Of a stretch of DNA of 64,000 bases, positions 7,159 through 45,667 are shown in pieces. Positions within the stretch are counted from its first letter, which is position 1. Every line of letters begins with the position of its first letter. Below the pieces are notes generated by a model. The model made no database searches and was not told where the DNA came from. It saw nothing but the letters and a program-made list of their open reading frames with translations. This DNA comes from Candidatus Heimdallarchaeum aukensis (GTDB lineage: Archaea; Asgardarchaeota; Heimdallarchaeia; Heimdallarchaeales; Heimdallarchaeaceae): positions 2,336,001-2,400,000 of the forward strand of contig CP084166.1 of assembly GCA_021513695.1 (NCBI GenBank), in the 5' to 3' direction. Both the position numbers and the translations under genes were made by a program.

Positions 7159-7177
7159 TTCAAACAGTGGTGAAATT

Positions 7178-17147: not shown

Positions 17148-17148
17148 G

Positions 17149-17655
17149 GTGAATAAAATGTTCGGATGGGCAAAAAAGAGAAAAAGGTTAAAAAAATTAG
17201 ATCAACTGTTTAATGCTGCTATGGCTGATGTAAGAATATTTGAGCAAAGGCAAGACTATAGAGGAGCAGTTATTGCTTCATTTGGAGGTCTTGCAAGCAT
17301 TGCAGAGAACTTGATAAATCTTACAAGAGCTCCACATCAGACAGGTAGAGAATTTGGCATGCAAGTTGCAGAACAAGCAAACATCTCTACAGAAGTCATG
17401 GATGAGTTTCTTACATCTTTTGAAATAGCTAGATACACAGAAAGAGAAATAGGTTATGATGATTATCAAGAGGCCGTACAACGATTAGATGTTTGCTTTA
17501 GAGGAATACGAGAGCAAGGTATTCAAGAAATAACTGAAGTAACATCTTCAAAGAAAGAAAAGAAACCAAAAGTGAAAACAGCTAAAGCAGCAAAAACTGA
17601 AGTTAAAACTACTAAACAGTTAAAAACTCGAAAACAGTTGAAAACTAGAAGATAA
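17149..17655 (+). CDS. stand-alone DUF4129-like protein with highly basic Lys-rich C-terminal tail
   Basis: 'APHQTGREFGMQVAEQ...FEIARYTEREIGYDDYQEAV' resembles the DUF4129 core. C-terminus 'KKEKKPKVKTAKAAKTEVKTTKQLKTRKQLKTRR'. Confidence 0.4.
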   Translation: MNKMFGWAKKRKRLKKLDQLFNAAMADVRIFEQRQDYRGAVIASFGGLASIAENLINLTRAPHQTGREFGMQVAEQANISTEVMDEFLTSFEIARYTEREIGYDDYQEAVQRLDVCFRGIREQGIQEITEVTSSKKEKKPKVKTAKAAKTEVKTTKQLKTRKQLKTRR

Positions 17656-17703
17656 TGGTTTGGTTCTAAAAAAAGATAAATGAAAAAAAATGGTGTGTAA
17701 TGT

Positions 17704-19488: not shown

Positions 19489-19539
19489 AATAATGTTTCA
19501 AAAAATAAAAACAAAAAAAGAAAAGGAAAGTGAAAAAAA

Positions 19540-20541: not shown

Positions 20542-20551
20542 AGTTAATTAG

Positions 20552-22000
20552 GTGATTACAATCTTTACACGAAGAGGAGGATACCTGATATTCTTTGGTA
20601 TTGTAATGATTAGCGTAGGCTTTGCACTTGCAGGTTTCCTAGCTCTAAATAATATACTTGAATCATTTGGAGCACATCCAGTGCCTGAAACATCAACAGA
20701 AGGCCCTCAAGGAACAGGTTTAATGGATCTTTTACATTTCTACCTTTTAGATTCGACTCTAATATGGTATTTCATCATTTTAGGTGTTATGCTAATATTT
20801 TCCGTTATGCTTGGTTTACCTTTCTATAGACTCGGTGCAAACCCTGAATCTATAGAAATAAAAAGAAAAGTAGCTAAAGCAAAAGCTTTTGCAGGAGATT
20901 ATGTGTATATAGAAGTGACAGTAAGAAACAGATCTGTAAACCAGCTTCCCCACGTAGAAATTTACGATGCAATTCCAGAAGTCTTTGACTTAGTGTTAGG
21001 CGAAAATTTCATTATTACACAGCTGAATCCAAAGGAAACAGTTACATTTGGATATGTAGTTCGGATACCAATTAGAGGATTGTTCAATATTGGACCAACT
21101 AAAGTTATAATCAAAGATAGAATGGGATTCTACGCTACAGAAGGAGAAATTAAAACAAAGACGGAGATATTAGTTTATCCAAGCTATGAAGATATTAGAA
21201 AAATGGAAATGATAGGCAAAAAACGTCGTCTAGGTGTAATTTTTGGAATGCATAGAACTAAAGTTAAAGGAATGGGAGACGATTTCGCTGGAATTAGACA
21301 GTATCAAACAGGAGATCCATTTAAATTTATTGACTGGAAAAGCGTTGCACGTTCTGGGAAAATGATGGTTCGTGAATTCGAAGCAGAGCAAAATATTCGA
21401 GTAATTATCATGATCGATGCCTCTGCAAGTATGGGTGCTGGGCTACCTAGAAACACTAAGTTAGAATATGCTATTCGAAGTGCAGTGTTACTAATGCATC
21501 TTGCTTTCGAAAAACACGATATGGTTGGTTTGTGTGTTTATGATGATGAAGTTAGAACATGGATTGATCTAACCAGTTCTAGAAATAGACTCTTTGCGTT
21601 TTTGGAGGCTTTAGCCTTAGTAAAACCAAAAGGGGAATCAGATCTAGAAAAAGCTATGGATTATGCAATAAAGAGAGTACGAAGAGCATCCTATATAGTT
21701 ATTTTGTCTGATTTAGAGTCTAATCCACAAAAAATAGTTTCAGCAATTAGGCAAGCGCGGGGACGGAAACACCAAGTAACAGTTATAAGTCCATTTGGAC
21801 CTTGGTTTGAGATTGTATCTCAGCAATTGAGCCCCATAGAGCAACTAATTGGTTATGCTATGGTTGAAAAACAGATGGGTGAAAGATATAGAATGTTTAA
21901 GGCTATAAGAAAATTCGATGCTACCACTGTTAATGTTGGACCAGATGATTTCTTACCTACAATTATGGCTCAGTTCAGAAGGATACAAAGGAGGGGATGA
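20552..22000 (+). CDS. DUF58 protein (vWA-like), module 2
   Basis: N-terminal TMs, 'FAGIRQYQTGDPFKFIDWKSVARSGKMMVREFEAEQN', then 'VIIMIDASASMG' (vWA MIDAS-like DxSxS). Confidence 0.85.
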   Translation: MITIFTRRGGYLIFFGIVMISVGFALAGFLALNNILESFGAHPVPETSTEGPQGTGLMDLLHFYLLDSTLIWYFIILGVMLIFSVMLGLPFYRLGANPESIEIKRKVAKAKAFAGDYVYIEVTVRNRSVNQLPHVEIYDAIPEVFDLVLGENFIITQLNPKETVTFGYVVRIPIRGLFNIGPTKVIIKDRMGFYATEGEIKTKTEILVYPSYEDIRKMEMIGKKRRLGVIFGMHRTKVKGMGDDFAGIRQYQTGDPFKFIDWKSVARSGKMMVREFEAEQNIRVIIMIDASASMGAGLPRNTKLEYAIRSAVLLMHLAFEKHDMVGLCVYDDEVRTWIDLTSSRNRLFAFLEALALVKPKGESDLEKAMDYAIKRVRRASYIVILSDLESNPQKIVSAIRQARGRKHQVTVISPFGPWFEIVSQQLSPIEQLIGYAMVEKQMGERYRMFKAIRKFDATTVNVGPDDFLPTIMAQFRRIQRRG

Positions 22001-22003
22001 AAA

Positions 22004-23515
22004 ATGGAATCATTATCAGAAACAAGAATGATTGATCTTGGAATTAGAGGAGTAGAACGAAGGCTTAAAGGGGCAAGAACACAGACTATTATTACCAACG
22101 TAATTTCTAGATTAATTGCTATAGGTGTTATATTATGGCTATTTCTTCAATTATGGACTAATATTGATAAAACAAAATTACCTCCTGGCCATTTAATTGA
22201 TTCACTTACTATCTTCTTTCTCTATTTTGAGAATTTTGCGGTATTATTCTTTCTTATACCAATATTCTTGATATCTTTAATTTTCGGAGCAATGGGTAGT
22301 GGCGCAGATGGGAGCGCTATATTACTTACGGCAAGAGCATTTTTTACTGTAGACATTTTCAATAATGTTTCTCCTCCAGAACCGATGACTTCATCTGAAC
22401 TTTATGGAAGTGAAAGCACAAACATGTTTTCAGTCTTTACCAGTGCTTTTGGTTATCTGTGGCGAAATCGTATTTACTTCAAAGATACTAATCGAGCAAC
22501 AATTCTCATTTTAGCTGTAATTATTTTCTGGTTAGGTGTAACTGCCTTTCTGATGAGGTCTGATATGAGGACAGCAGCAACCGTCTTTGCTTCTTCTCAA
22601 TTCATTGTACTATATGCTCAAACCCAATTGTTATTTAAAAATCAGTTATATTATGCTCCAACAGAAAATATAGTTGTGCTCTTTTCTTATGATGCAGTAA
22701 TTACAGCTTTAGCATCATATCTGTTCCTAGAGATAGCGTTGCAAACATCTTATATCTCTAAAATACTTAATCCAACGCAAGATAGACAAAAAAGAGTTTT
22801 ACAAGCTCTTGATAGACTAAAAGAATTTAGATTAGGAATAACCCCTGTAACAACAGAAGTGAGTAAACCTGAAACTGAGGAGACTAAAAAGGAAGCCTCA
22901 AAAACAATTGCAGGAGCAGGAAGCAGTTTGGTCAAAAAGTACGGTGCTACAGCAGTGGCGTTTTTAGCAGAAAAAACTAAAGATTCGCTTTTTGCTAAAC
23001 CTGGAGGACGACAAGCTAAATTGACAGGGAGACTGCAACGATATCATGATAGTTTGGTGCATAGTGATACAGAGGTTGATCAAAAACTAGTAGGGGCATC
23101 AGTAGCTGTCTCACCAATGATGACGATAGTATATATTACCATTTCAATAATCTTTAGATTAATAATAATGATGCTCGGACTATTTTTAGTCTTAAATCCT
23201 GATATTCTGTTATTCATTCTTCGTTATCCTCCTTCAATTTATTATAGTCTAGAAATGTTAGAACCAGAAGGAGTAGTTCTACTTTTAATACCAATAGTAG
23301 TAATGATATTATTGTTAACAGAGCTAATAGGTTATATACAGAAGAGATTAGCTGAAAGAATAACCCAAGAAAAAACAGAAGAAGAATTAATGGAAGAAAT
23401 TCAATATGAAGAAGAAGAGGGCACAGGAGTAGTAACAGAAGGACCGATAAGTGATATATCAGAAGAAGAATTATTCTATAAACAATTAGAAGAAGAATTC
23501 TCTGATGAAGAATAA
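22004..23515 (+). CDS. polytopic membrane protein with strongly acidic C-terminal tail, hypothetical (end of module 2)
   Basis: 503 aa with many hydrophobic segments. C-terminus 'EEELMEEIQYEEEEGTG...EEELFYKQLEEEFSDEE'. Same position as the membrane protein ending module 1. Confidence 0.45.
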   Translation: MESLSETRMIDLGIRGVERRLKGARTQTIITNVISRLIAIGVILWLFLQLWTNIDKTKLPPGHLIDSLTIFFLYFENFAVLFFLIPIFLISLIFGAMGSGADGSAILLTARAFFTVDIFNNVSPPEPMTSSELYGSESTNMFSVFTSAFGYLWRNRIYFKDTNRATILILAVIIFWLGVTAFLMRSDMRTAATVFASSQFIVLYAQTQLLFKNQLYYAPTENIVVLFSYDAVITALASYLFLEIALQTSYISKILNPTQDRQKRVLQALDRLKEFRLGITPVTTEVSKPETEETKKEASKTIAGAGSSLVKKYGATAVAFLAEKTKDSLFAKPGGRQAKLTGRLQRYHDSLVHSDTEVDQKLVGASVAVSPMMTIVYITISIIFRLIIMMLGLFLVLNPDILLFILRYPPSIYYSLEMLEPEGVVLLLIPIVVMILLLTELIGYIQKRLAERITQEKTEEELMEEIQYEEEEGTGVVTEGPISDISEEELFYKQLEEEFSDEE

Positions 23516-30262: not shown

Positions 30263-31123
30263 ATGTCACCTAGCAAAACAAAAGAGCCTATAAATATATT
30301 TAAAGCGCTTTCTAATCCAATTAGAAGAAACCTAGTTAGTTTTATAGGTGACAAAACAAGATATGGCGATTCTGTTTCTTTTACTCAAATTCAACAAGAA
30401 TTTAATATGAAAGTAGGAACTCTATACCACCATCTTGACTCATTAGGGGACTTGATTACACAAGATGAGAAGAAAAAGTATTTACTTACTCCCAAAGGAG
30501 TTCAAGCTTATAATTTAATAGAAGATAAGATCGATGCATTTGCAAAGGAAATGCCCACATTTGGACCTTTTTCTTTTTTACATAGAGTTTTTTTACGTAA
30601 TTACTTCGAAAAAATTCAGTCTGATCCCTTACGCTTTTTAGGTATTTCACTATTTATTTTTTCTGGGTTGGTGACTGGTTCGTATTTCTTATCTTATGGG
30701 CCAATCTTCATATTTCCCACTTTAATAAGTCCACAATTCTTAACCCCTGTTCTATTTGTTCTATCGGCATTAGTTATTTATTTACTCATAGAGCTTTTTA
30801 CTTCTCTTTTTTTTAGGAAAACAACAGACAAACTAGCCTTATTTCAAGCTGTTCTCTATTCTCAAATCCCTTTGTTTATCTTTTCAATTATTGAGTATTT
30901 TGTTATGGATGTAGACTACTCTGTTTCACCTTTAGACATCTCTATTTGGCTTTTCTTGCTCTTAATTTTCATTCAGCTATTATTCTTAGGAGTAATTATT
31001 GAAGCACTGATTGTTATTAAAGGATTAAGAATGGAGAAAGCAGGTTTGATAGCACTATTGGTAATCTATTTGCTTAATCTTTTCTCATTTTTATTATTAA
31101 GGGGGTTGGTGGTGAGCATATGA
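30263..31123 (+). CDS. membrane-tethered winged-helix (ArsR-like) transcription regulator
   Basis: N-terminus 'IFKALSNPIRRNLVSFIGDKTRYGDSVSFTQIQQEFNMKVGTLYHHLDSL' (ArsR-type HTH), followed by about 5 TM segments. Confidence 0.5.
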   Translation: MSPSKTKEPINIFKALSNPIRRNLVSFIGDKTRYGDSVSFTQIQQEFNMKVGTLYHHLDSLGDLITQDEKKKYLLTPKGVQAYNLIEDKIDAFAKEMPTFGPFSFLHRVFLRNYFEKIQSDPLRFLGISLFIFSGLVTGSYFLSYGPIFIFPTLISPQFLTPVLFVLSALVIYLLIELFTSLFFRKTTDKLALFQAVLYSQIPLFIFSIIEYFVMDVDYSVSPLDISIWLFLLLIFIQLLFLGVIIEALIVIKGLRMEKAGLIALLVIYLLNLFSFLLLRGLVVSI

Positions 31124-34100
31124 AAAAGTTACAAAATTTTCGAATTAAGTTCACTAACCTAGTATTCGAAAAAATTCGAAATAAAGCTTTTTCAAGAGAG
31201 AAAAGTATACTCTTTTTGAGAGCGAGTAAGTTGAAAAGTGCATTATATTCTAATCAGATTCCAATAGCCCCATCATCTCTGAAACGATACATTGCACTTT
31301 TACTCCTCTCACTTATGCTTTTCTCTTCTCCTCTTCTAGCTCGTGGATTGACCTATGATGGTAGTCCACGAGCTCTTTCTTCCATAAATGTTTCTTCAAC
31401 ATTATACCAAGAAAAATTGAGTTTTATAACAGGAAAAAATGATAGTTTATTGGCTAGTTTGTCATTAAAAGGAGGAAACATGGATTTTGATATGGAAATC
31501 CCATCATCAATTTTATACAAAATAAAAGATCTCTCCCTTATTGTTTCAAACCAAACTTTCTTTCAAGATGTTTGGACTAATCCTTTATGGAGATATCCAA
31601 CTGGGCTGAATATATTGTTTACAATTAATTCACAAAATCCAACTGTTGTAGAAAATGCTATTCATGATATAATGACAATCATAAACAATCAATATAATGT
31701 AAGCTCAATTGTTTATTCTATTAATTCTTTTAATGAAGGAGAAACTAAAGTTTCGATCTTTTCATTCATTGACTTCTTTTTACAGAAAGAAATATTTACT
31801 GATATTTTTGGAATTAATGAGACTGTAAGTAATGGAAATTTTGTTTCTCTTTTTCATTCTCAATTATTAAAACGTCCATCTGTTTATGCCTTTGGTTTTT
31901 ATCTATTTCTAAGAAATGGTGAGATTCAATATCTTACTCGAAAAGCGTTTGTGTCCATAAAAGAGAAAATTCCTGTGGTGAACAATGAACGATTGCTTGA
32001 ATTAAGCTCTATACTCGGAACTTCACTTATGCCAAATACTAATGCATTGTATTCTAATATCGATATTAGATTCCCATTTTTAGCTAATTTTACATTAGTA
32101 AGACCCTTTCCAACAAATGTTGCCCCCAAATTGTCTGGGCTCTTTCAATGGGTGCTAAAAACTCCCTTATTTGTAATTTTTCCCACCTTTAATGCTTGTT
32201 TGCATTATTACTTATCCGTTGAAGATAGTGCAAAATTTCCAAGAGTTATCATAACTAACTCTTATTCTGATACTTTAATTGAAGAAAATGGTATCTTCAA
32301 AATGAATTATGAAGTAGAAAATATAGGGAACACTATCGCTTATAACACTACCTTGTTCTTTCCAATTCCTCGTGAACTTGAGTTCTATTCAAAAGAAAAC
32401 CTTTCTGTTCCCGTTCTAAAGGACGAAATCGAAATAAATTCGAGTTTTAGTAATGAAATTAAATTGAAAATTGATATTCCTTATCTATTAAAAGAGACAG
32501 ACTTACTTCTGCGAATATTAGGTTGGTATCAAAATGTTTCAACTAACGCATTAGAAAGATGGAATGATACTACTCAGATTCCACTATATGGAACTGAATT
32601 AACACTGATCTCAGAATATGGGTTTCCATCTGATCTTGTTGACTTATTAGTAAATTTCATTATTCCATATCTTATGAAAAACTATGATACAGTTCTAGAG
32701 CTATATAATGATCTAGATACTGTGGTCGAGATATTATATCTGTCACTTATTTCTACTTATAATACAACTTTCCACGCTTTCTATGATATGAAACCAATAT
32801 TTAATTACATATCAGATGATTTTCAAATAATTCACACTTCTTTTGGAAGCTTTCTTTATTGTGTAATTCCAGAAATTGGTGTAAATGAAACTATTAGAGT
32901 AAATTGGTCAATTGAAAATATTCCAACAAAATATGATCGAGTAGGAATATTTAACCTAACATCTGAAACCAATGATGATCAGGTTATAAAGAAATATGCG
33001 ATATTTCAAACAAAGAATACAGATTATCATACTCTTCTCATATCTAAATATTCAGAAACTGACAGTACAGGACGGATATTGAGTGATTACGATGAAATAA
33101 CGAATTCATTCATTAATATTGGTACCCGATTTAAGTATTCGAACATAAATGGGGATGAATATTATGGTTTGACAAACGGTATAAATATTCAAATTGGGGA
33201 TGATGAGGCCATCATAGAAAGTAAATTGACTACATCTAGTTCTGTATATTCTGTTGGGGATAATATATTTTTAACATTAAATATAACTAATAGAGGACAA
33301 ATACCTGCATATGATATTAATATTGAAATTGCCAACATCAAACTAGATTTCCTATGGCAACCTAGCGACATTATAAAATTAAAGAGTTTAACGATTGATT
33401 CGATTGCTCCTAACGAAAGTTTTGTGAGGGTAATTCAATTAAGAGCAAACAGCTATATAGGTTTTAATACTTATATTGCGTTTATTAGTTTTGTTTCTGA
33501 CAAAGATCAACATGGTGTTGAAGTAACTAATCCTTGGACAAATCAAACTTCAGTGTGGACATACGGTGGTGAAACAAAGAATATTGTTACTTCTACATTA
33601 GTTTCTGGATTGCTTATTCCTTCTCAGTCATTTGTGAATAAATCCAGACCTAGTTTTCCTTTACCTGAGATAGTGTCAAATGTTAGTTATTCACTCTCTC
33701 CCGCCAATTCTACTGTAACTGTACAATATGAAATAAGCAATACTGGCTTATCAGAAGCAAACGTTTCCATCACACAATTTCTCGATAATTCCACCTATTC
33801 TTCCCTAGAATCGGTCGAAATTAGAAAAAGTGAAGTCAGTTATAATTATGTAGCTAGTAGTTACCTAACTTATATTAAATTAAATCTGATAGAGCAAGTT
33901 ACTCTTCTTCCTGGAGAAAAAGTAACAATAACAGAGACTTATTCTGTTAAAAACACTAAATTAGTTCTTTCACCTTTACAAATAGAGTATTATTCACTTT
34001 ATGAGATAATGACAACTGACTTCCAATCCGACTACACTGATTTTGGTGAAGAAAGCACAGTTTTTGTTAGCGAGTATTTACACTTCAGCCCACTAACCGC

Positions 34101-34320
34101 AACCGAAAGCGATCAAGCCAAATTCAAATGGTCTTCGTATTCTGACAACATTGATATTGATTTACCACCAATAGAAGAGGAACAAACAACGAAATTTGTA
34201 GTTACTTTTCCTGAAATCCACTTTATGTTTATACTCGTGAGCGTTGGCACAGCAACAGTTGTAGTAAGTATATTTTCGATTATAAGTGCAATATTAAGAA
34301 AAAGAAGAGGATATATGTAA
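31120..34320 (+). CDS. large (1066 aa) secreted/surface protein with N-terminal signal anchor and C-terminal TM plus basic tail
   Basis: ATGA overlap with the upstream regulator. Hydrophobic 'YIALLLLSLMLFSSPLLA' near the N-terminus. C-terminal 'FMFILVSVGTATVVVSIFSIISAILRKRRGYM'. No recognised catalytic motifs. Confidence 0.5.
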   Translation: MKKLQNFRIKFTNLVFEKIRNKAFSREKSILFLRASKLKSALYSNQIPIAPSSLKRYIALLLLSLMLFSSPLLARGLTYDGSPRALSSINVSSTLYQEKLSFITGKNDSLLASLSLKGGNMDFDMEIPSSILYKIKDLSLIVSNQTFFQDVWTNPLWRYPTGLNILFTINSQNPTVVENAIHDIMTIINNQYNVSSIVYSINSFNEGETKVSIFSFIDFFLQKEIFTDIFGINETVSNGNFVSLFHSQLLKRPSVYAFGFYLFLRNGEIQYLTRKAFVSIKEKIPVVNNERLLELSSILGTSLMPNTNALYSNIDIRFPFLANFTLVRPFPTNVAPKLSGLFQWVLKTPLFVIFPTFNACLHYYLSVEDSAKFPRVIITNSYSDTLIEENGIFKMNYEVENIGNTIAYNTTLFFPIPRELEFYSKENLSVPVLKDEIEINSSFSNEIKLKIDIPYLLKETDLLLRILGWYQNVSTNALERWNDTTQIPLYGTELTLISEYGFPSDLVDLLVNFIIPYLMKNYDTVLELYNDLDTVVEILYLSLISTYNTTFHAFYDMKPIFNYISDDFQIIHTSFGSFLYCVIPEIGVNETIRVNWSIENIPTKYDRVGIFNLTSETNDDQVIKKYAIFQTKNTDYHTLLISKYSETDSTGRILSDYDEITNSFINIGTRFKYSNINGDEYYGLTNGINIQIGDDEAIIESKLTTSSSVYSVGDNIFLTLNITNRGQIPAYDINIEIANIKLDFLWQPSDIIKLKSLTIDSIAPNESFVRVIQLRANSYIGFNTYIAFISFVSDKDQHGVEVTNPWTNQTSVWTYGGETKNIVTSTLVSGLLIPSQSFVNKSRPSFPLPEIVSNVSYSLSPANSTVTVQYEISNTGLSEANVSITQFLDNSTYSSLESVEIRKSEVSYNYVASSYLTYIKLNLIEQVTLLPGEKVTITETYSVKNTKLVLSPLQIEYYSLYEIMTTDFQSDYTDFGEESTVFVSEYLHFSPLTATESDQAKFKWSSYSDNIDIDLPPIEEEQTTKFVVTFPEIHFMFILVSVGTATVVVSIFSIISAILRKRRGYM

Positions 34321-34746: not shown

Positions 34747-37293
34747 GTGAAATGTCCCGATTGTAGTAAAACCTTAACGATTGAAGAAAAAAGTCACACA
34801 TTTACTTTTCGTTGTCAATTTTGTGGATACTACTCAAAAATTGTTGGTGCTAAAAATGTTGAAGAAGCTTATAAGAAGACTGTGGAGAGGGCTATAGCTC
34901 AAAACAATATAATCCAAATATCAAAAAAAGAATCAGAACAACTAGTTAAAAGATTAACTCTTCAAGAGAAAATTAATCTGATTAAAAAAGGGAATGGTGA
35001 TCCTTCTAATCTCCCAAATCCCTTAGTTAAATTGTTAAGACATCCTGACTTAGAACCAGTTTACTATTTATTCTTGGAGCAAAAGTCTCCAGCTTTAGCT
35101 AAAGATTCCCTTTTTCTTCCATCTGAATTAAGTTCCTTTCTTAAGAAAAAGGGTTTTGTTCAATTATATGAATTTCAAAAACAATCGTTCAAAAAGATAA
35201 CAGAAGGAAAAAATGTAGTTATTGTAGCCCCAACTGGAACAGGTAAAACCGAGGCTTTCCTTTTTGCTATATTAACAGAAATTTGGGAATCTCATCCTCA
35301 TCCTCTATTACGAAATGGTCCTTATGCAATCTTTATCTATCCAAATAAAGCTTTAGCTAGAGATCAACAAAAGAAGATAAGCGAATATAGTTCAAAATTG
35401 GGAATAACCTGTGAAATTTTTGATGGCGATACTTCACAATCCAAAAGAAAAAAGATTTTGGAAAATCCTCCTGATATTTTAATAACAAATCCTGATATGC
35501 TACACTATCATATGCGAAAACCTAGTTTTAGGAGTCTGCTTTATCCGGTAAAGTTTGTAGTTATAGATGAAGTTCATGTGGCCGTAGGAGCATTTGGAAC
35601 AAATCTTTATTTTATAATTAGGCGATTAAGTCGATTGACAAAAAATAAATTACAATTTATTGCTGTTTCTGCCACAATAGGTAATGCCGTTGAGTTTACT
35701 TCTAAATTATTTAACAGCCCTTCTATGGATATAGTAGAAGTAACAGATGCACGAAAAGCACCTACTCATCTTATGATTGTGTATCCATATGGAACAAGCC
35801 AGTATACACTTACAGGAGACATTACTCGATTACTTGCTTCATCTGGTAGAAAAATCTTAGTTTTCCAGAATAGTCATAAAAATGCAGAAATTATTAATCT
35901 CCTTCTCAGCCAGAGAATGAAAATTGACAGCGCAGTGCATAGAGCGGGTCTCACAAAGAAATATAGAGCACAGGTAGAAAAAAGATTTAGAGATAATGAA
36001 CTAGATGTGTTAGTTTCAACGCCTACTTTAGAATTAGGAATAGATATTGGCAGTGTAGATTCTGTTGTATCTTCAATTGTTGACTTTACAAGGTTTACTC
36101 AACGATTAGGTAGAGCAGGAAGAAAAGGACAAGAATCAATAGGTATTCTTATTCTTAGGGACAATGACCCGATCTCTACCTATTATGCTTTTTACCCTGA
36201 AGACTATTTTGAAGACATAAGAAAAGGATTTATTGAACCTAAAAATGAACTCATTGCCTACTACCAAATATTATCCGCTGTGATGGATAAACCTCTAAAA
36301 GAAAATGAATTTCAAGAGTTTAAACACATTATTTTGAATCTTGTAAATGATGGTTTAGTTAAATTAGCACCAAAAGGAGAATTTCAAATAGCTGATTATT
36401 CAAAGGTTAGAAAAGTTTTGTCAGTATTTAACTTAAGAGGAATCGGTGATACTATCGTAATTGAAGATATCAATGGCAAAGAACTAGGTAGTCGTTCAAT
36501 GCCAATGGCTGCAAGAGAGTTACATCCGGGGGCAATATATTTACTAGGCGGAAAATATTATCGCTCTCTGTCCTTTCAGTATGATCCGAGATTAGGTCGT
36601 GGAAGAGTTAAAGTTCAAAATATTCCGCCGCTTAATAAAAAAACTACTGCTTTACGTTTTGCAATGCCTGAGATTATTAAAATTCATGAATTAAAGAAAA
36701 TTACTGGAACAGAAGCAATTTACTGTGATCTACGAATAACAGAAAATGTAATTGGTTATTCACTTTCTGATATCTTTACTGATGAGAATGTTGAAAACAT
36801 CCCGTTAAAAGAACCTATTCAGTATTCTTTTGTAACTAAAGGATTTATGTTTGTGATGCCAAAACCTCAAAAAATCTTCAGAAATTACCCCGATAAGCAT
36901 GAAGATGAACTAGCCACTGGCACATTTCACGCAATTGAACATGTTTTAATCGAATCAAGCGAAATGATAACTGGTGGAGGAAGTAATGAAATAGGAGGTA
37001 TTTCAATGGGACATTCTGGAGCAATTTTTGTGTATGATGGAGCTAAAGGAGGTTCTGGTCTTTCAAAGCTACTTTTTGACCGATTAGATGAAGCGCTTGA
37101 TCGTTCATTAAATATCCTTAAGAAATGTACATGTAAAACAATGGACGGTTGTCCTAGATGTACCTATAGCTATCAATGTGGAAACAATAATTTCCCACTG
37201 AACAAGTATGGTGCTATTGAATCTCTGACACTTGTTAAAAAATCTAAATTAAAAATCATTGAAGATGTGAGCGGTTATAATCCTCTGATCTAG
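34747..37293 (+). CDS. DEXH-box helicase with N-terminal zinc ribbon and C-terminal DUF1998/MZB domain (YprA/MrfA-DrmA-like)
   Basis: Motif I 'VAPTGTGKTEAF', II 'VIDEVHV', III 'SAT', VI 'QRLGRAGRKGQ'. C-terminal 'CTCKTMDGCPRCTYSYQCGNNN' (DUF1998 four-Cys knuckle). N-terminal 'CPDCS...CQFCGY'. GTG start. Confidence 0.8.
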   Translation: MKCPDCSKTLTIEEKSHTFTFRCQFCGYYSKIVGAKNVEEAYKKTVERAIAQNNIIQISKKESEQLVKRLTLQEKINLIKKGNGDPSNLPNPLVKLLRHPDLEPVYYLFLEQKSPALAKDSLFLPSELSSFLKKKGFVQLYEFQKQSFKKITEGKNVVIVAPTGTGKTEAFLFAILTEIWESHPHPLLRNGPYAIFIYPNKALARDQQKKISEYSSKLGITCEIFDGDTSQSKRKKILENPPDILITNPDMLHYHMRKPSFRSLLYPVKFVVIDEVHVAVGAFGTNLYFIIRRLSRLTKNKLQFIAVSATIGNAVEFTSKLFNSPSMDIVEVTDARKAPTHLMIVYPYGTSQYTLTGDITRLLASSGRKILVFQNSHKNAEIINLLLSQRMKIDSAVHRAGLTKKYRAQVEKRFRDNELDVLVSTPTLELGIDIGSVDSVVSSIVDFTRFTQRLGRAGRKGQESIGILILRDNDPISTYYAFYPEDYFEDIRKGFIEPKNELIAYYQILSAVMDKPLKENEFQEFKHIILNLVNDGLVKLAPKGEFQIADYSKVRKVLSVFNLRGIGDTIVIEDINGKELGSRSMPMAARELHPGAIYLLGGKYYRSLSFQYDPRLGRGRVKVQNIPPLNKKTTALRFAMPEIIKIHELKKITGTEAIYCDLRITENVIGYSLSDIFTDENVENIPLKEPIQYSFVTKGFMFVMPKPQKIFRNYPDKHEDELATGTFHAIEHVLIESSEMITGGGSNEIGGISMGHSGAIFVYDGAKGGSGLSKLLFDRLDEALDRSLNILKKCTCKTMDGCPRCTYSYQCGNNNFPLNKYGAIESLTLVKKSKLKIIEDVSGYNPLI

Positions 37294-37367: not shown

Positions 37368-37787
37368 TTGATCAACATGCTATCGTCATCAAATCTTAAT
37401 GTGAAAGAGATGCTTAATATTGCTCTCGACTGTATTTTCCCAACTAGTGAATCAATAGAACCTGAAATATTAAAAGAAATCACAAAATTCTTAGAACAAC
37501 AAGAACCTCAAGCTCCAACAGAAGATGCTGAAATTGTTAGAGGTGAAATAAGGAAAGCATTAATCCACTTTAAAAATCGTCCTTATTTGTATAATTCTAG
37601 AAAGAAAATTGAGAGTCTATTACTTAAGAACGAAAATTGGAAAAAATTCATTATTGCTCCTCATTCATTTAAAGATGAACTTATTGAAGCAGGGTTATCA
37701 TCAAAAGAGATAGCATTGTTGAAATCATCTCTTGAGAATGCAGAAAACACATTAAACCTCCTAAAACATATTCCCCAACCTCACTAA
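37368..37787 (+). CDS. hypothetical small protein downstream of helicase
   Basis: 139-aa ORF, predicted helical, no recognisable motifs. Confidence 0.35.
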   Translation: MINMLSSSNLNVKEMLNIALDCIFPTSESIEPEILKEITKFLEQQEPQAPTEDAEIVRGEIRKALIHFKNRPYLYNSRKKIESLLLKNENWKKFIIAPHSFKDELIEAGLSSKEIALLKSSLENAENTLNLLKHIPQPH

Positions 37788-37912: not shown

Positions 37913-39433
37913 ATGGCAGATTTAAGACTTAAATACGGTACATCGCTAAATAAACAAAAAATGATGGAAATAACTATTGTAAGTATTATTGCACTATTTC
38001 TCTTTGTTTTGTCATTATATGTTAAAGATGCTTTTTGTTCTTGGTTCAATATGCAGAAGGGTGCAGGTTTTTACTGGTATTATGACCCCTCTAACCCTGA
38101 AGCTGTTTGGTACATAGAAGGATACGTTGATGCCTCATATTATTATCAACCTTATTTGTATGCATTTAGATATCAGAATTGGAATCCTTACTTGGGTGGA
38201 GAAGGACCATTGAATGGTTATGCTTATGGCCCCCTTTTTATATATGGTCTTTATTTTATTTCTCTTTTTGTTTCTATTGCAAATCCTTCTCTAACGAATT
38301 TTCAAGTGGTAATTGAATCAGTAAAATGGACACATATTGTTTTTGACTCATTATCGGTTGTTATGCTTTTTTTTATTGTTATCAATTTAGAAATAATGAA
38401 GTCAAAGAAATTTTCTAAATATTTAACTGGTGTTATAGCATCTGTTGTATATATTTTCATGCCCTTTAATCTGCTATACATTGATGCTTTAAGTCTTAAT
38501 ATTCCTCAAATGACTTTCTTTGTTCTTCTTGGAACATTTTTATTTAGAAAAGAAAAATATATTTTATCTTCATTTGCCATGACTTTGGGTTGGTTATCGA
38601 AACAGATGCCACTATTTATTGTTGTTCCTTGGTTTATAATACTCTGGAAAAAAGATGAAGACTTGAAAAAAGCACTTGTAGATTTCTTATTCCCTTTCTT
38701 TATTTTCACTTTGATATTCTCAATTCCTTGGTTAATATTGTCACCGGGAGGATATTTATTTAGAATATTTGGACCTGGAAAACCATTATCTATCGTTTCT
38801 TTGTCTTCCAAATATAATGGATATACTGTCACCTTGGCACATAGTTTTCTGAAATTAGGAAGCGAAACTTTAGCAAACATATATTTGTTTCTAAATAAGT
38901 ATATGATACCTTTTTTTGTTTTTTATATACTTACGTTATTAATTTGCTATTTTAATGCTTTAGATATATTTAATGACGAAAAACAATTTTACATTTATAA
39001 CACAGTAGTAATTCTTGTGTCTCATATATTCATTTCTAGAGGAATTTACAAATATTATGATGCATTTTTTTCTCCTTTCTTCATTCTTTTTCTTGTTTTA
39101 CTACTTTGGTCTTATTTTGACTTATGTAGATTCAACAATAGAACTTTATTGTATTCTTATTTTTTCGTTTCAATAATTTCCAGTTCAATTATTTTGTACT
39201 ATATTAATTGGGTAATAATCATCAAATCTAGATTCCTTCATCCTCTCTACTTGTTATTAATTTTTATTTTCATTTCTAGCTTTTTAGAAAGTAATTTTTA
39301 CTCGAGTCTAACCAAGTTTGAAAGCTACAGAATGATAATATTAGATATCAAAAAGATTTACTCTGATATAAAAAACTCTCTTCGAATACACAAAAAGGAA
39401 AAAGATCCGAAAATAAATCCGAATTTAGAATAA
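37913..39433 (+). CDS. polytopic membrane protein, possible GT-C-fold glycosyltransferase-like
   Basis: About 12 hydrophobic segments and an aromatic-rich first loop ('YYYQPYLYAFRYQNWNPY'). Topology resembles GT-C/DUF2029-type enzymes; weak call. Confidence 0.35.
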   Translation: MADLRLKYGTSLNKQKMMEITIVSIIALFLFVLSLYVKDAFCSWFNMQKGAGFYWYYDPSNPEAVWYIEGYVDASYYYQPYLYAFRYQNWNPYLGGEGPLNGYAYGPLFIYGLYFISLFVSIANPSLTNFQVVIESVKWTHIVFDSLSVVMLFFIVINLEIMKSKKFSKYLTGVIASVVYIFMPFNLLYIDALSLNIPQMTFFVLLGTFLFRKEKYILSSFAMTLGWLSKQMPLFIVVPWFIILWKKDEDLKKALVDFLFPFFIFTLIFSIPWLILSPGGYLFRIFGPGKPLSIVSLSSKYNGYTVTLAHSFLKLGSETLANIYLFLNKYMIPFFVFYILTLLICYFNALDIFNDEKQFYIYNTVVILVSHIFISRGIYKYYDAFFSPFFILFLVLLLWSYFDLCRFNNRTLLYSYFFVSIISSSIILYYINWVIIIKSRFLHPLYLLLIFIFISSFLESNFYSSLTKFESYRMIILDIKKIYSDIKNSLRIHKKEKDPKINPNLE

Positions 39434-39577: not shown

Positions 39578-40138
39578 ATGAAGGAAACAAAAAATCGTGC
39601 TGTTTCTCCAGTTATAGGAACAATGCTAATGATTAGTTTAGTTATTGCGGCGAGTGTATTTGTGGCAATTTTTATTGGCAATATTAGAGTTCCTGCAATT
39701 GAAATTGGAGAAGAGACTCCCTCTCTTTATTCAGTAAACATTGATGTTATTTATTTTAACATAACTGATACTAATTCTAATGGACTAAATGATACACTTG
39801 TAGTAAAGTTTAATCTGGATTTAGATTCCCCAACAATTTATGTACAAGATATTGACATTTTGTTGCCTACAGGAAACTTACTTGATGATATAGTTCCATG
39901 GGTTATTATTGATTCAAATAGCTCTTGGAATTCAGACTTCTATGGATATTCTGTTTTGAATGGTAGTTTGAATGCTACATTTACTGTACAATGTTATGAC
40001 CTATCTAAGTCTGTAGGTGAAATTGCTCCAGGATATTCATTTTATTATTTAATTAAATATAACTATGTTTCTGTCAAAGGAAACCAATTGACTCTTATTT
40101 CTGATGTTTATCAATCAGAGTTAATAGAGACAAAATAA
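39578..40138 (+). CDS. archaeal type IV pilin-like protein (class III signal peptide, DUF361-type)
   Basis: N-terminus 'MKETKNRAVSPVIGTMLMISLVIAASVFVAIFIG' carries the archaeal prepilin peptidase motif (basic residue, then A/G followed by VSPVIGT and a hydrophobic helix); beta-rich remainder. Confidence 0.6.
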   Translation: MKETKNRAVSPVIGTMLMISLVIAASVFVAIFIGNIRVPAIEIGEETPSLYSVNIDVIYFNITDTNSNGLNDTLVVKFNLDLDSPTIYVQDIDILLPTGNLLDDIVPWVIIDSNSSWNSDFYGYSVLNGSLNATFTVQCYDLSKSVGEIAPGYSFYYLIKYNYVSVKGNQLTLISDVYQSELIETK

Positions 40139-40193
40139 TATACAACATAATAATACATTTTTTTCTTTTTTCAAAACATTTTTTTAGATATTT

Positions 40194-40949
40194 GTGCTTA
40201 CTAATTTGAACATAATGTCCCTTGAACCAAAACGAGCTTATAAAATAGTTTTAATTGGAGACCCAGAAGTAGGAAAAACTTCCATAAGAAGAAGATATAT
40301 GGGAAAAACGTTTAAAGGAGAATATTTGAAAACAATAGGTGCTGACTTTGCAGCACAAAAAGTAGAAATTGAAGATGAGGTCGTTTTATTAACAATATGG
40401 GATCTAGCTGGGCAAACTATCTTTCATGGAATGCGTTCTTCCTTTTACCAAGGATGTAAGTCTGCGTTAGTTGTTTTTGATGTAACAAATGTTGAAAGTT
40501 TGAACAATGTAGAAAAATGGACAGAAGAAGCTGTAACCTATGCAAAAAGTTCATTACAAGAGATTTATTTAATAGGCAATAAAATAGATTTGAAGAAAGA
40601 GAGAGTAGTTACAAAAGAACAAATAGACAAAAAAGTAAAACAATTGGAATCTTTAGTTAACTTTCCTATTAGAGTTTATGAAACATCTGCTCTTACAGGA
40701 GAAAATATCCAATCTTTATTTATGGATCTAAGTAGACGATTAATTATTAGTGATAACGTTAAATTTGAAGAAGAAATAGAAGCTAAACGTGCTCATGATG
40801 TTAAGAAAGAAAAAAGAAAAGAACCAGGTAAAGATGTTGATTATAAATCTAAAGATGACTTGAAAGAGATAATAAACCATATCGAGCTTCATGTTGAGAA
40901 AATAAATGACTTTATCAAATTATTGAAAAAACGATTAGATAAACTGTAA
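40194..40949 (+). CDS. Rab/Ras-like small GTPase (Asgard-type eukaryotic signature protein)
   Basis: G1 'GDPEVGKTS', switch I 'KTIGADF' (RabF1-like IGxDF), G3 'WDLAGQ', G4 'GNKIDL', G5 'ETSALTG'. C-terminal 60-aa K/E-rich extension without a CAAX box. Probable true start is the ATG at 40215. Confidence 0.85.
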   Translation: MLTNLNIMSLEPKRAYKIVLIGDPEVGKTSIRRRYMGKTFKGEYLKTIGADFAAQKVEIEDEVVLLTIWDLAGQTIFHGMRSSFYQGCKSALVVFDVTNVESLNNVEKWTEEAVTYAKSSLQEIYLIGNKIDLKKERVVTKEQIDKKVKQLESLVNFPIRVYETSALTGENIQSLFMDLSRRLIISDNVKFEEEIEAKRAHDVKKEKRKEPGKDVDYKSKDDLKEIINHIELHVEKINDFIKLLKKRLDKL

Positions 40950-41030: not shown

Positions 41031-42347
41031 TCATTCATCTAATTCTGTTAGTTTGACATATAGTCTCTTATAAAAATCTTGTACAGTTTGTAGAGATTTT
41101 AACTCAATATATTCATTTGCTCCATGAACATTTCCGCCAATTCCTCCAAATTCGATAGCAGGGATGTTCCTAGCGCTAAACCATCTTGAATCTGTAGCTC
41201 CTCCCATCTCAATTGTTTTTGTAGGTAATTCCAGTTCCTTAGCTACTTCAAGAGCTTTTTGAACTAATATTGAGGATTCAGACGTATTAACAGGTCCAAT
41301 ACTTCCTTCTGCTTTTATCTCTGCTTCAACATTGTGGTCTTTAAAGAAATCTTCAAAATATTTTTGAATTAAAGTATGATTATTACTCATAATTCTCAAG
41401 TCTAGTTGTACAAAGTAATGACCTTCTTTTTCAATAAAATAGTTGAAAGTAAGATTTATTCCATAATCACTATAATCTGATTCAATATCAACATTATCAA
41501 AGTCTCTTATAGAACGAAGAAATAAAGTTAAGTTTTTATCAATCTCAAAAGCTTCTCCTTCTTCATTTATCTTAACATAATCAATTGTAATTTCTGGTGG
41601 AATAACATTATTTTTTATGAAAACTCCGCTAATTGTTTGAACCAAGTCATCTTCTGAAAGTTTCTTAGATGCTGCAACAGCACAATGGATATCTAATTCC
41701 TTATTAAAGTATGCAGCATGCATAGTTCTATTTCCAGCTATTTCTGTTGTAAACTTCTCCGTATATAACTTCCCTTTTACTGTTTTCTTCTTTTTTGGAA
41801 TTTTTAAGTTTATAATGTACGGATTTCTACGTCTATTAATTATTTGTAAACCATTAGCATCACCATTTACTACATAATCTGGAACTAAATCATGTTTTTC
41901 TAATTGAGGAAGAAGTTCTCCTGCTCCAAAAGCTCCTCCTGATTCTTCGTCTAAATTAAAAGCAAAAATGATTGTGCCTTTCTCTTCTTTTGCAAAAAAT
42001 TCAGCCAGACTTAGCATTACAGCTACAGAACCCTTCATGTCTGCACTCCCTCGCCCATATCCTTTTTCGTCCCTTATTATAAAGGTAAATGGATCAGTTT
42101 CCCAATTTGGCCCCGGTGGTACAACATCACAGTGCCCTAAATATAACATCTTAGGGCTATCTCTTTTGATATAGGAAATAAGAGTCCAATAACCTTCTTT
42201 TACGTACATAACATTTTCGTATCCATATTCAGATAAGTAATTTCTTATAAAAATGAGTATGTCTTTACTAGGTTTGATTTTTTTTACAGGATTATTTATC
42301 GTATTGAATGAAACAAGTTTTTCAAGAATGGTTAAGTATGATTTCAT
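41031..42347 (-). CDS. M20-family metallopeptidase (ArgE/DapE-like deacylase)
   Basis: 'LGHCDVVPPGPNWETDPF', 'GRGSADMKGSVAVML', 'NLDEESGG' are the M20 metal-binding and catalytic motifs. Confidence 0.75.
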   Translation of the reverse strand: MKSYLTILEKLVSFNTINNPVKKIKPSKDILIFIRNYLSEYGYENVMYVKEGYWTLISYIKRDSPKMLYLGHCDVVPPGPNWETDPFTFIIRDEKGYGRGSADMKGSVAVMLSLAEFFAKEEKGTIIFAFNLDEESGGAFGAGELLPQLEKHDLVPDYVVNGDANGLQIINRRRNPYIINLKIPKKKKTVKGKLYTEKFTTEIAGNRTMHAAYFNKELDIHCAVAASKKLSEDDLVQTISGVFIKNNVIPPEITIDYVKINEEGEAFEIDKNLTLFLRSIRDFDNVDIESDYSDYGINLTFNYFIEKEGHYFVQLDLRIMSNNHTLIQKYFEDFFKDHNVEAEIKAEGSIGPVNTSESSILVQKALEVAKELELPTKTIEMGGATDSRWFSARNIPAIEFGGIGGNVHGANEYIELKSLQTVQDFYKRLYVKLTELDE

Positions 42348-42565: not shown

Positions 42566-43702
42566 GTGTTAAAAAAAATGAATAAAAAAGGAATCTTTTT
42601 AATGGCATTGTTCTTACTTTCATTCCTTAGTGTAATGCCAACTAAGGCCGTAGTGGAAGATAAGAACACTGTTACCATTACATTGGGAACAGATGTCGCT
42701 GGTTATGTTGACAAAGGTGAACTCTATGTCGAAATTGACCGCGACGTCCTTCCAGATGGAAAAATCTTCTACACTGGAGATGAGCTATGGTTACACTTCT
42801 TCTATGATGTAGCCTATACAAACTTCTTCGGTGCAGCAGCTCCAAATGGAGGTTTCCAATGTGATGCATGGTTCTATGAAGAACCAGATGAAAACGGACT
42901 ATATAATGAAACAAGATTCAGTGGTATGCTAAACGGATATCTAGACGACTACGATTTAGGTCTAACAGATTTCGATCCTTACGACGGTAATACAACCCAA
43001 GAAATAACAATTACCTTAGAGGAAGGATGGCACACCTTTACTATTGTAGCTGCTGAATACATTTCAGACAACACTCATACCGAATTCCACTGGGAATGGG
43101 TAAAAGATCAAGTAAGCTTCTACGTTACTTCTGATACAACCTTAACAGAAGCTCCTGCAGTCGAATCATCCGGTAAGAAAGTCAAATTCGAATCAATCGC
43201 TAAAAACTCTGAAAACATGACCAACGGATTTGATTGGACAGATCCATGGACTGTTCGTCCAGTAGCTGAACCAGCTGCTTATTCAGACCTAGAAATATCA
43301 ACAAAGAAACTAGTAACCAAACTAACTGCTTATTACAACACTACATGGCAAGAATTAAACTTGACTGACTACGTTTGGGATACAGGTTTTGTTGATGAGT
43401 ATTCAATGGGTTATGGTGATGTTGCATGGTTCAATGCTGCTATAAACAACAGTTTAGTACAAGCAACTGAAGGAACTATTCCTTTGAACCTTGGAGTAAA
43501 CTACGTTGTATTTGCAGTAGTTGGATTCCACGCAGCTGATTTTGCAGCACTTTATGGAATACCCTTCCCAACAGTGCAATTCTCAAGCGTAATCTACAAG
43601 ATTGATGTAGTACCAGGACTAGGACCATCATACGGTATCCTTATAAGTGTCTCAATCTTTGGTCTAGTGGCTGCTTTAGGATTAAAGCGCTTCAGAAAAT
43701 AA
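42566..43702 (+). CDS. secreted protein with signal peptide and C-terminal TM anchor plus basic tail, hypothetical
   Basis: 'KKGIFLMALFLLSFLSVMPTKA' signal; acidic/aromatic ectodomain; C-terminus 'VPGLGPSYGILISVSIFGLVAALGLKRFRK'. Confidence 0.45.
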   Translation: MLKKMNKKGIFLMALFLLSFLSVMPTKAVVEDKNTVTITLGTDVAGYVDKGELYVEIDRDVLPDGKIFYTGDELWLHFFYDVAYTNFFGAAAPNGGFQCDAWFYEEPDENGLYNETRFSGMLNGYLDDYDLGLTDFDPYDGNTTQEITITLEEGWHTFTIVAAEYISDNTHTEFHWEWVKDQVSFYVTSDTTLTEAPAVESSGKKVKFESIAKNSENMTNGFDWTDPWTVRPVAEPAAYSDLEISTKKLVTKLTAYYNTTWQELNLTDYVWDTGFVDEYSMGYGDVAWFNAAINNSLVQATEGTIPLNLGVNYVVFAVVGFHAADFAALYGIPFPTVQFSSVIYKIDVVPGLGPSYGILISVSIFGLVAALGLKRFRK

Positions 43703-43717: not shown

Positions 43718-45667
43718 ATGAACAAGAAACTATTTATTGCCCTTTTTGTAGTCTCTACAATGTTGGTGTCTAGTGTATATTCTGCTTCAACAAGTAAGGC
43801 TGCAGTAGAACCAATCGCCACTTTAACCTATAAAACAAACGGTGGAGGCTTCCGTCCCGATTATGGTCTTTACATTGCTCAATACTTAAGTGAATTAGGT
43901 ATTAAAGTTAATGTAAAGGTTGAGGAATGGATAGTCTTCGTAGGTACACTGTTAGTTACCTACGACTTTGACCTCGCTTTTGTAGGTTTAGTAGGTGGTG
44001 GTGCAGACCCTGATCTAACAGGTGTATACAACGAAAATGGTTCTCTAAACATGTTTGGTATAAACACCAAAATGCCTTATGGAGCAGAAAATGAAGAAAT
44101 GATGAAGGAAGGAGTCCTCATCATGGATCTTGAAGAAAGACAACAACACTATTATGAATGGCAACAATTAATCATGGACAAAATCTTGCCAATGTTACCA
44201 TTCTTCAGTCCTCGTTCATATGTTGCTAATTGGGCTACATTAGACGGATATGACAATCGTTGGGGTATAATTGACTCCTTACCATACATGGAGTTCACAG
44301 AATTACACGAAGGTCAAACATCCACTGAAGAATTCTATGATTCTGACGCTAAATGGAAAGAATTGAACCCATTGTTGCAAGATGATGCATCAAGTTCTTA
44401 CATTTCATCCTTAGTCATGGAACCATTAATGCAAATGACTCCTGACTTTGAACCAGTCAAAACTGGTATAGTTATCGATTGGGAACAAGATGAAACCAAT
44501 GAACTCTTATACAAATTCACTCTACGTGATGATGTCTACTGGAACCCATCCTTCAACATCACAGGCAGAGATAGTAGCTCTGATCCATTAGTTGATGAAG
44601 ATGGAAACATCGTAGATCCCAGCATCTTAATGGTTGGTGATAAAGGAGAGTTCAGTGATGGAACAAACCAACAAGTAACTGCTAAAGACGCAGTATTCAC
44701 ATTACTTGCTTGGGCAAACCCAATCACCAGTGAAGACGCTGATGTATACAAATGGATTCATGACATATGGGTTGATCCTGAAGATGAATTATCCTTCTGG
44801 ATAGAAATCGATGGTGATCCTGACACTCCTGAACCAGAAAATTATGCACCCTTCTGGTCAGCAATGACTCCAAGATTACTACCAGAATTCTTCTTAAACA
44901 CAACCAACACAACTGTTACATACTCCTCTGGTGGAGTACCAATGGTTGGTTTAGGAGAAGGTATTCTTGATACTCCTCAATGGAAGACCTACAGTACTTC
45001 CGCATTTGGTTGTGGTAAGTACATGTTAGACTACTACGTTGAGAACTCAATTACAGTCTTACAAGCTTCTCCATTCTGGTTTGGTGTAGGAGCCATTGAC
45101 GGAACAGAACAAGATCTAGATATCAAAACCTTCAACATTCGTGTTATTCCAGATCAAACATCTGCATTAGCAGAATTCAAAGCTGGAAAACTCGATATCA
45201 TGGGTATGACTGCCTTCCCAGAGGAAAGAAAGGAGATGGAAACCGATCCTAGATTCGAAGTTCAATCAGCTCTAAGAAGCTATGTTAACTTCATGGGATT
45301 CAACCTCAGAAGACCATTCATCGGTGGAGACGACAACTATGTCTTCTTAACTGAACCTGGTTATGAGGAATATACCAAAGCTCTCGCTGTCAGAAAAGCT
45401 ATTGCATACGCAATCGACAGAGAAGAAATCAACAACGTTCTTCATGATGGTGAATACTTGATCTCTCACAGCGTTATTTATCCAGTACAAGCATTCTGGT
45501 ATTATAACGACATTATCAAGTACAACCATGATCTCGATACAGCTATTGCATGGCTTAAGAGAGCAGGAGTATATAAGGAAGCTGAAGTTACAACAACTCC
45601 ATTACCAATAATTGGTGTTGTTGCAGCAATCATGTCCTTTGTTTTACTCAGAAGGAAGAGAAACTAA
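43718..45667 (+). CDS. extracellular solute-binding protein family 5-like (OppA/DppA-type), C-terminally TM-anchored
   Basis: Signal peptide. 'KFTLRDDVYWNPSF' and especially 'ALAVRKAIAYAIDREEINNVLHDGE' match SBP_bac_5 conserved blocks. C-terminal 'IIGVVAAIMSFVLLRRKRN'. No ABC permease or ATPase genes adjacent. Confidence 0.5.
   Translation: MNKKLFIALFVVSTMLVSSVYSASTSKAAVEPIATLTYKTNGGGFRPDYGLYIAQYLSELGIKVNVKVEEWIVFVGTLLVTYDFDLAFVGLVGGGADPDLTGVYNENGSLNMFGINTKMPYGAENEEMMKEGVLIMDLEERQQHYYEWQQLIMDKILPMLPFFSPRSYVANWATLDGYDNRWGIIDSLPYMEFTELHEGQTSTEEFYDSDAKWKELNPLLQDDASSSYISSLVMEPLMQMTPDFEPVKTGIVIDWEQDETNELLYKFTLRDDVYWNPSFNITGRDSSSDPLVDEDGNIVDPSILMVGDKGEFSDGTNQQVTAKDAVFTLLAWANPITSEDADVYKWIHDIWVDPEDELSFWIEIDGDPDTPEPENYAPFWSAMTPRLLPEFFLNTTNTTVTYSSGGVPMVGLGEGILDTPQWKTYSTSAFGCGKYMLDYYVENSITVLQASPFWFGVGAIDGTEQDLDIKTFNIRVIPDQTSALAEFKAGKLDIMGMTAFPEERKEMETDPRFEVQSALRSYVNFMGFNLRRPFIGGDDNYVFLTEPGYEEYTKALAVRKAIAYAIDREEINNVLHDGEYLISHSVIYPVQAFWYYNDIIKYNHDLDTAIAWLKRAGVYKEAEVTTTPLPIIGVVAAIMSFVLLRRKRN

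Follow-up and report, generated by a model that had tools for sequence, protein, structure and literature searches.

The 64,000-nucleotide stretch of Candidatus Heimdallarchaeum aukensis DNA considered here (contig CP084166.1, positions 2,336,001 to 2,400,000; below, the window) encodes a Rab-like small GTPase of the Asgard RasL kind, whose G domain is followed by a charged linker and a predicted coiled-coil helix. Of the explanations weighed, the best, to which we assign a probability of roughly 0.6, is a cytosolic Rab-like switch that carries a coiled-coil tail and operates independently of the pilin-like gene beside it. The protein is a further member of an already known group (Asgard Rab-like/RasL) in an already published, circularized genome (PMC8813620), and it is 100% identical to a 244-aa database protein from the same organism (P0001). 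The window has a G+C content of ~32%. Feature coordinates are collected in Table 1.

An earlier note on this DNA, made from the sequence without database searches, had pointed to the GTPase and a neighboring pilin; its observation is confirmed, and its interpretation holds in part. Both open reading frames (ORFs) are present as described, with one correction to the start of the GTPase. We place it at ATG 40215, as ~70 orthologs and the NCBI record all begin MSLEPKRAYK. The upstream GTG at 40194 (251 aa, called by the ORF tool) was rejected because ortholog N termini favor the ATG; this GTG lies within the promoter-like spacer between the pilin-like gene and the GTPase gene. All five G boxes that had been read from the sequence are found in the ORF: GDPEVGKT (G1), T40 within KTIGADF (G2/switch I), WDLAGQ (G3), NKID (G4), and ETSALTG (G5), with the catalytic Gln67 supplied by the DLAGQ of G3. 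The G-box columns are invariant across 60 aligned sequences, and the protein displays the motifs of the Ras superfamily (G1 GxxxxGK[ST], a switch-I Thr, G3 DxxGQ, G4 NKxD, and G5 SA[KL]). The P-loop itself (window 40257-40280, residues 15 to 22) has a Pro at the equivalent of Ras Gly12 and a Glu at the equivalent of Gly13. This pair is nearly invariant among orthologs, and GDPAVGKT occurs in some Thorarchaeota and Heimdall paralogs.

Profile, sequence, and structure searches all assigned the protein to the Ras/Rab side of the small GTPases. Among Pfam models, Ras scored 148 bits (cutoff, 21.6), followed by Roc (101), Arf (52), and Gtr1_RagA (29); TIGR00231 scored 92.6 bits (cutoff, 42.5). The top sequence match in the PDB was the Thorarchaeota Rab (Thor-Rab) 7EZB (E value of 2.7e-33; 118 bits over residues 14 to 186), and the remaining 59 of the top 60 matches were Ypt/Rab chains. 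An AlphaFold2 (AF2) model built from a 60-sequence alignment had a predicted local distance difference test (pLDDT) score of 80.9 overall, mostly 88 to 98 in the G domain, and a predicted TM score (pTM) of 0.70. Foldseek retrieved exclusively Rabs among its top 50 PDB matches to this model (target-normalized TM scores of 0.80 to 0.91; 29 to 37% identity). The nearest eukaryotic proteins in sequence and fold were Rab1/Ypt1 and Rab8. Weaker evidence came from pairwise phmmer comparisons of the G domain, for which, as for the tree discussed below, the reference sequences other than those of Thor-Rab and Ypt1 were entered by hand. They gave 117 bits for Thor-Rab, 112 for Ypt1, 110 for Rab1A, 106 for Rab6A, 102 for Rab7A, 92 for Rab5A, and 91 for Rab11A. 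Outside the Rab family, scores were 78 bits for Ran, 57 each for Rac1 and HRas, 53 for RhoA, and 24 for Arf1.

For a segment-by-segment comparison, we used the RabF1-RabF5 family motif consensus (Pereira-Leal & Seabra 2000), checked against Ypt1 in the alignment from the PDB search. Relative to Ypt1, 14 of 27 RabF positions are identical: 4/5 in IGADF/IGVDF, 3/5 in LLTIW/KLQIW, 1/6 in IFHGMR/RFRTIT, 2/5 in FYQGC/YYRGS, and 4/6 in VVFDVT/IVYDVT. The window protein shares with eukaryotic Rab1/Ypt1, Rab8, Rab6, and Rab7 the five G boxes, the fold, largely intact RabF1 and RabF5 motifs, and a flexible C-terminal region; it differs in its diverged RabF3 and RabF4, in lacking a prenylatable Cys, and in a tail that ends in a predicted coiled-coil helix. 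No CC, CXC, or CAAX prenylation motif is present at the ...KKRLDKL end, and no Cys occurs after residue 81, which bears out the absence of a CAAX box first read from the sequence. Measured against Rabs in the strict sense, the protein falls short in prenylation and agrees only in part in the RabF motifs.

Placement among the bacterial MglA/Rup-type GTPases, which the earlier note had raised as a contrary outcome, was rejected. MglA (sequence entered by hand) gave no phmmer match to the G domain at an E value of ≤10, and a rough neighbor-joining (NJ) tree weakly grouped the Asgard sequences with the Rabs. A roadblock domain is likewise not found in any window ORF of at least 90 aa. The protein is Asgard encoded and closest to 7EZB and to eukaryotic Rab/Ras rather than to Arf, Rag, or MglA. 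By these sequence comparisons, Rab-like Asgard RasL GTPase is a defensible name, and the Rab/Ras-type assignment of the earlier note stands.

The most distinctive part of the protein lies beyond the G domain, where a tail without Cys runs from EEEIEAKRAHDVKKEKRKEPGKDVDYKSKDDLKE... to ...KKRLDKL. Its first part is a K/E-rich linker, K/E balanced in the window protein and net acidic in most orthologs (median net charge of −7). Its second part is an amphipathic helix predicted by AF2 at residues 213 to 243 (pLDDT of about 73 to 81). Positions 216, 220, 223, 227, 230, 234, 237, and 241 are hydrophobic in 92 to 100% of 53 orthologs, and position 244 is hydrophobic in 69%, giving a strict 4-3-4-3 spacing. 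The periodicity of the helix peaks at 102.9°, equivalent to 3.5 residues per turn. Across orthologs, the median hydrophobic moment (muH) is 0.61, the mean hydrophobicity 0.17, the aromatic content ~1%, and the median net charge ~−1; by sequence, this profile suits a coiled-coil seam and not an amphipathic helix that inserts into lipid. A transmembrane tail anchor was also considered and rejected, given that the helix is amphipathic and highly charged.

This architecture extends well beyond the window. At least 40 residues follow the G domain in 117/120 of the nearest Asgard relatives, and a heptad segment was detected in 112/120 of them versus 1/117 shuffled tails. A G domain followed by a low-complexity linker and a terminal heptad helix also occurs in Helarchaeota, Thorarchaeota, Kariarchaeaceae, and Heimdall paralogs. 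Two papers on archaeal Rab-like proteins describe them as having no extended C-terminal region. We found no description of a linker-plus-heptad tail in the literature searched, coverage of which was incomplete.

Thor-Rab (7EZB/7EZD/7EZE; Tran et al. 2024, PMC10933270) is the closest characterized relative. It is the best solved-structure match, is likewise of Asgard origin without C-terminal cysteines, and shares WDLAGQ in G3 and SALTGEN in G5. It differs in being 182 aa long, with a truncated C terminus and no extension, whereas the window GTPase adds a linker of ~32 residues and a 32-residue helix. Because the G-domain residues are conserved and GTPase activity has been published for Thor-Rab, the window protein most likely cycles between GTP and GDP in the manner of Rab/Ras, with Gln-dependent hydrolysis.

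The explanation that we favor can be set out from these data. The protein would be a cytosolic GTP/GDP switch, orthologous to an ~245-aa protein found throughout the Heimdallarchaeaceae. Its tail would take over the localization role that the hypervariable region and prenyl group have in eukaryotic Rabs, with the linker acting as a tether and the helix pairing in a coiled coil, whether by self-association or by contact with a helix-binding partner encoded elsewhere in the genome. Two other functions of the tail helix were weighed. It might bind membranes as an amphipathic helix that replaces the prenyl anchor and brings the GTPase to the cytoplasmic membrane by itself. Membrane association is expected of a Rab-like switch, the helix has a high median hydrophobic moment (muH of 0.61), and its end is Lys rich in the window protein (KLLKKRLDKL; net charge of the best 18-mer, +3). 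However, among orthologs the helix has a net charge of ~−1, a hydrophobicity of 0.17, and ~1% aromatics, its a/d seam is narrow with a 3.5-residue periodicity, and the linker before it is strongly acidic (median of −7). We therefore consider direct membrane binding unlikely. Still less probable, in our estimate, is that the helix folds back onto the G domain to cause autoinhibition dependent on the nucleotide state. C-terminal elements regulate other small GTPases, the long flexible linker would permit such a contact, and the helix pattern is conserved; nevertheless, AF2 gave no sign of confident packing (pTM of 0.70, helix pLDDT of about 73 to 81, and a stretch below 50 before the helix), and an a/d heptad kept strictly through 4.5 repeats is seen more typically in bundles of helices.

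The gene preceding the GTPase encodes a pilin-like protein whose N terminus reads NRAVSPVIGTMLMISLVIAASVFVAI. It scored above the cutoffs for Pilin_N (31.3 bits; cutoff, 25.2) and TIGR02537 (27.5 bits; cutoff, 20), in agreement with the class III signal pilin of the earlier note. A hydrophobic helix (residues 11 to 35), a linker, and a β-sandwich (residues 55 to 182) give it the layout of the pilin/archaellin fold, and it carries five N-glycosylation sequons. Orthologs keep the signal motif [KR][AG]|[VI]S[PE], and the family comprises 28 clusters, all from Heimdallarchaeaceae. By sequence, the protein is a genuine class III signal, archaellin-fold surface protein; its assembly into filaments is putative. 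Domains of an assembly ATPase (T2SSE/FlaI), a platform protein (T2SSF/FlaJ), or an A24 prepilin peptidase were not found in the 64-kb window. In this the gene differs from archaeal type IV pilins, archaellins, and FlaF/FlaG, being an orphan that lacks these assembly genes in its vicinity, and it agrees with a recent survey that reports standalone pilins in Asgard genomes.

The GTPase gene is probably transcribed independently of the pilin-like gene, because the spacer between them contains a T run and a TATA-like box and because a conserved upstream box is kept whichever gene precedes. The pilin stop codon (40136-40138) lies 76 bp from the GTPase ATG. It is followed directly by a T7CT6 run that resembles an archaeal terminator, and an A/T-rich, TATA-like box read from the sequence lies ~30 nt before the ATG. 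Across loci, the 50 nt before the GTPase gene are conserved and include a box, CAAAAGAATTAAAA or GCAAAAGAAATAAAAC, with either the pilin-like gene or an M20 peptidase gene upstream.

Gene order was compared in 26 ortholog loci from species-representative genomes and several metagenomic loci, with neighbors mapped by profiles and tblastn. The window, L009 (Ca. H. endolithica), L010, L011, L014, and L030 are the only loci in which the pilin-like gene directly adjoins the Rab gene on the same strand. An M20 peptidase gene stands between the two in ~15 loci; in most relatives it is on the plus strand at that position, and in the window it is inverted and downstream of the Rab gene. L010, L011, L014, and L030 lack the M20 gene at this locus. 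In L032 (6108-6899) and L034 (9977-10741), only the Rab gene is in inverted orientation. Collinearity extends over ~25 to 30 kb in the order CARDB-1066, helicase, p140, GT-C, pilin-like, (M20), Rab, p400, SBP5, p156, FG-GAP, CLC, MptE, PTPS, and p312, a block whose genes have unrelated functions (helicase, SBP5, CLC channels, and pterin enzymes). In L001, the helicase separates the GT-C gene from the pilin-like gene. None of 43 paralogous Rab-like loci has a pilin, GT-C, or p140 neighbor, and none of four paralogous or distant GT-C loci has a pilin or GTPase neighbor. The simplest reading of these gene orders is inherited family-level synteny, with the pilin-like gene adjoining the Rab gene in the window because M20 has relocated within the block in the Heimdallarchaeum genus.

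In most relatives, a divergent Ras-like gene of 301 to 304 aa lies between p140 and the GT-C gene (L003, 1129-2043; L005, 1230-2135; L007, 9156-10061). Its product has an ~115-aa N-terminal extension, a GxxxxGKQS P-loop, and a degenerate G3 ("DIP"), scores only 37 to 50 bits against Pfam Ras, and may be a pseudo-GTPase. The gene is missing from the window (between 37787 and 37913), L009, L017, L028, L032, and L033.

The earlier note had taken the pilin adjacency as a hint that the GTPase regulates a surface structure. In its fullest form, this idea makes the Rab, pilin-like, and GT-C genes (with the 301-aa Ras-like gene and p140 in relatives) a Heimdallarchaeaceae module that controls the assembly, glycosylation, or placement of a surface filament. 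The linkage itself, whose conservation the earlier note had proposed to check, is real: the pilin-like gene is at most one gene away from Rab in all ~24 informative Heimdallarchaeaceae loci, p140, the Ras-like gene where present, GT-C, and pilin keep the same order and strand with short spacers in most loci, every member family occurs in this one lineage only, and the pilin-like protein carries its five sequons. However, unrelated genes are equally collinear over ~25 to 30 kb, so that the linkage does not single out the pilin-Rab pair. M20 usually intervenes, Rab flips alone, the Rab upstream box is conserved independently of the preceding gene, in L001 a helicase stands between GT-C and the pilin-like gene, Rab and GT-C paralogs lack such neighbors, and genes for a pilus ATPase, a platform protein, and a prepilin peptidase are all missing from the 64 kb. 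We found no evidence in these sequence comparisons for pilus regulation by the Rab or for a joint function of the Rab and pilin-like genes, and we regard the module as very improbable. If it were true, MglA-controlled pili would have an archaeal counterpart, and an Asgard Rab-like protein would gain its first concrete cellular role.

The Myxococcus MglA/MglB system, which controls type IV pili, resembles the window only in the idea of a small GTPase gene near a gene for a type IV filament. It differs in that the window GTPase has a canonical DxxGQ G3 and in that neither roadblock/MglB in the 64 kb nor pilus machinery nearby is encoded. The earlier note had reported no adjacent roadblock or longin partner; this holds for the entire 64-kb window, which also encodes no TRAPP, TBC, or DENN domain. 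Published work likewise finds that, as a rule, the genes of Asgard GTPases and those of their regulators do not share an operon (PMC10933270).

Several points weigh against a Rab-like switch with a coiled-coil tail that is independent of the pilin. The coiled-coil role, which we propose, has heptad periodicity and a monomer AF2 model as its whole basis. The exclusive Asgard-plus-Rab clade in the rough NJ tree has 67% bootstrap support and includes references partly entered by hand, and a large-scale published phylogeny recovered Rabs without an Asgard sister and classed such Asgard proteins as RasL. We infer the terminator and promoter roles of the spacer elements from motifs; the box AAAGAATTAWAA shows no enrichment across the window (11 matches against an expected 9.85), so that only conservation across loci speaks for a promoter. 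Finally, the pilin-like gene stays within one gene of Rab at every informative locus, and the Rab ortholog, pilin-like, and GT-C families are all confined to the Heimdallarchaeaceae lineage.

Upstream of the pilin-like gene lies a 506-aa multipass membrane protein that the earlier note had called GT-C-like. That description is supported through distant relatives and not by direct matches: the protein itself has no Pfam match even at an E value of ≤10, and a PDB sequence search returned only chance-level WRB/CAMLG matches. An exhaustive profile search reached 434 relatives, and distant members match PMT_2 (34.0 and 29.3 bits; cutoff, 26.1) and GT87 (27.6 bits; cutoff, 25). Within the family, E69, Y71, and D73 in the first loop are invariant. 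Assignment as a divergent GT-C-type glycosyltransferase is thus supported by transitive homology only. A precomputed PMT_2 tag on one protein (P0222) was not reproduced. At two paralogous GT-C loci (L079, 506-1957; L081, 1189-2652), an ~485-aa protein with an Actin-family (PF00022) match is encoded nearby.

Other genes of the window were surveyed alongside; tRNA and Rfam scans found nothing. Two tandem, similarly organized clusters (1340-9339 and 10339-23515) encode a MoxR-type AAA_3 ATPase, DUF58/VWA, transglutaminase-like, DUF4129, and DUF4350 proteins, with much larger members (1,036 and 1,234 aa) in the second cluster. At the upstream edge of the syntenic block, a conserved 1,066-aa protein (31120-34320) has only weak, subthreshold matches to CARDB and TRAP_beta (translocon-associated protein beta). 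It is followed by a DEAD/DEAH helicase with a C-terminal MZB (MrfA Zn-binding) domain (34747-37293), whose best NCBIfam match is TIGR03817, "helicase/secretion neighborhood putative DEAH-box helicase" (323 bits, below the cutoff), and by p140 (37368-37787), an ~140-aa conserved helical protein of no known family that always comes after the MZB helicase. Beyond M20, a 378-aa secreted protein that belongs to no known family (42566-43702) and an SBP_bac_5 solute-binding protein (43718-45667) both end in a hydrophobic helix and then a basic tail (…GILISVSIFGLVAALGLKRFRK and …IIGVVAAIMSFVLLRRKRN, respectively). The C terminus of the 378-aa protein is conserved among orthologs. These ends could be a sorting or anchor signal; they gave no NCBIfam match.

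Table 1. Coordinates of the GTPase gene, its parts, and its neighbors in the window
Feature	Coordinates	Strand	Remarks
Multipass membrane protein, 506 aa, divergent GT-C (PMT_2/GT87-like)	37913..39433	+	Assigned by transitive homology
Orphan archaeal type IV pilin/archaellin-like gene, 186 aa	39578..40138	+	Class III signal KNRA|VSPVIG
Pilin-Rab spacer	40139..40214	+	T7-C-T6 run at 40158-40171; TATA-like box at ~40175-40193
Rab-like (Asgard RasL) small GTPase gene	40215..40949	+	244 aa plus stop; Pfam Ras, 148 bits
G domain, residues 1-180	40215..40754	+	G1 GDPEVGKT, switch-I T40, G3 DLAGQ, G4 NKID, G5 SAL
Charged disordered linker, residues ~181-212	40755..40850	+	pLDDT of <50 at 188-212; low column conservation
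Heptad (a/d) amphipathic helix, 32 residues, 213-244	40851..40946	+	Predicted coiled coil
M20 family peptidase	41031..42347	-	Peptidase_M20, 110 bits; PRK08554, 367 bits

The interest of this locus is modest and rests on the widespread, underdescribed linker and coiled-coil tail; the pilin adjacency currently adds nothing to it. Asgard Rab-like GTPases, which would have to localize without prenylation, are central to the debate on the origin of eukaryotic membrane traffic. The tail described here suggests a protein-protein tether, formed by a coiled coil, as a pre-eukaryotic counterpart of the hypervariable region and lipid anchor.

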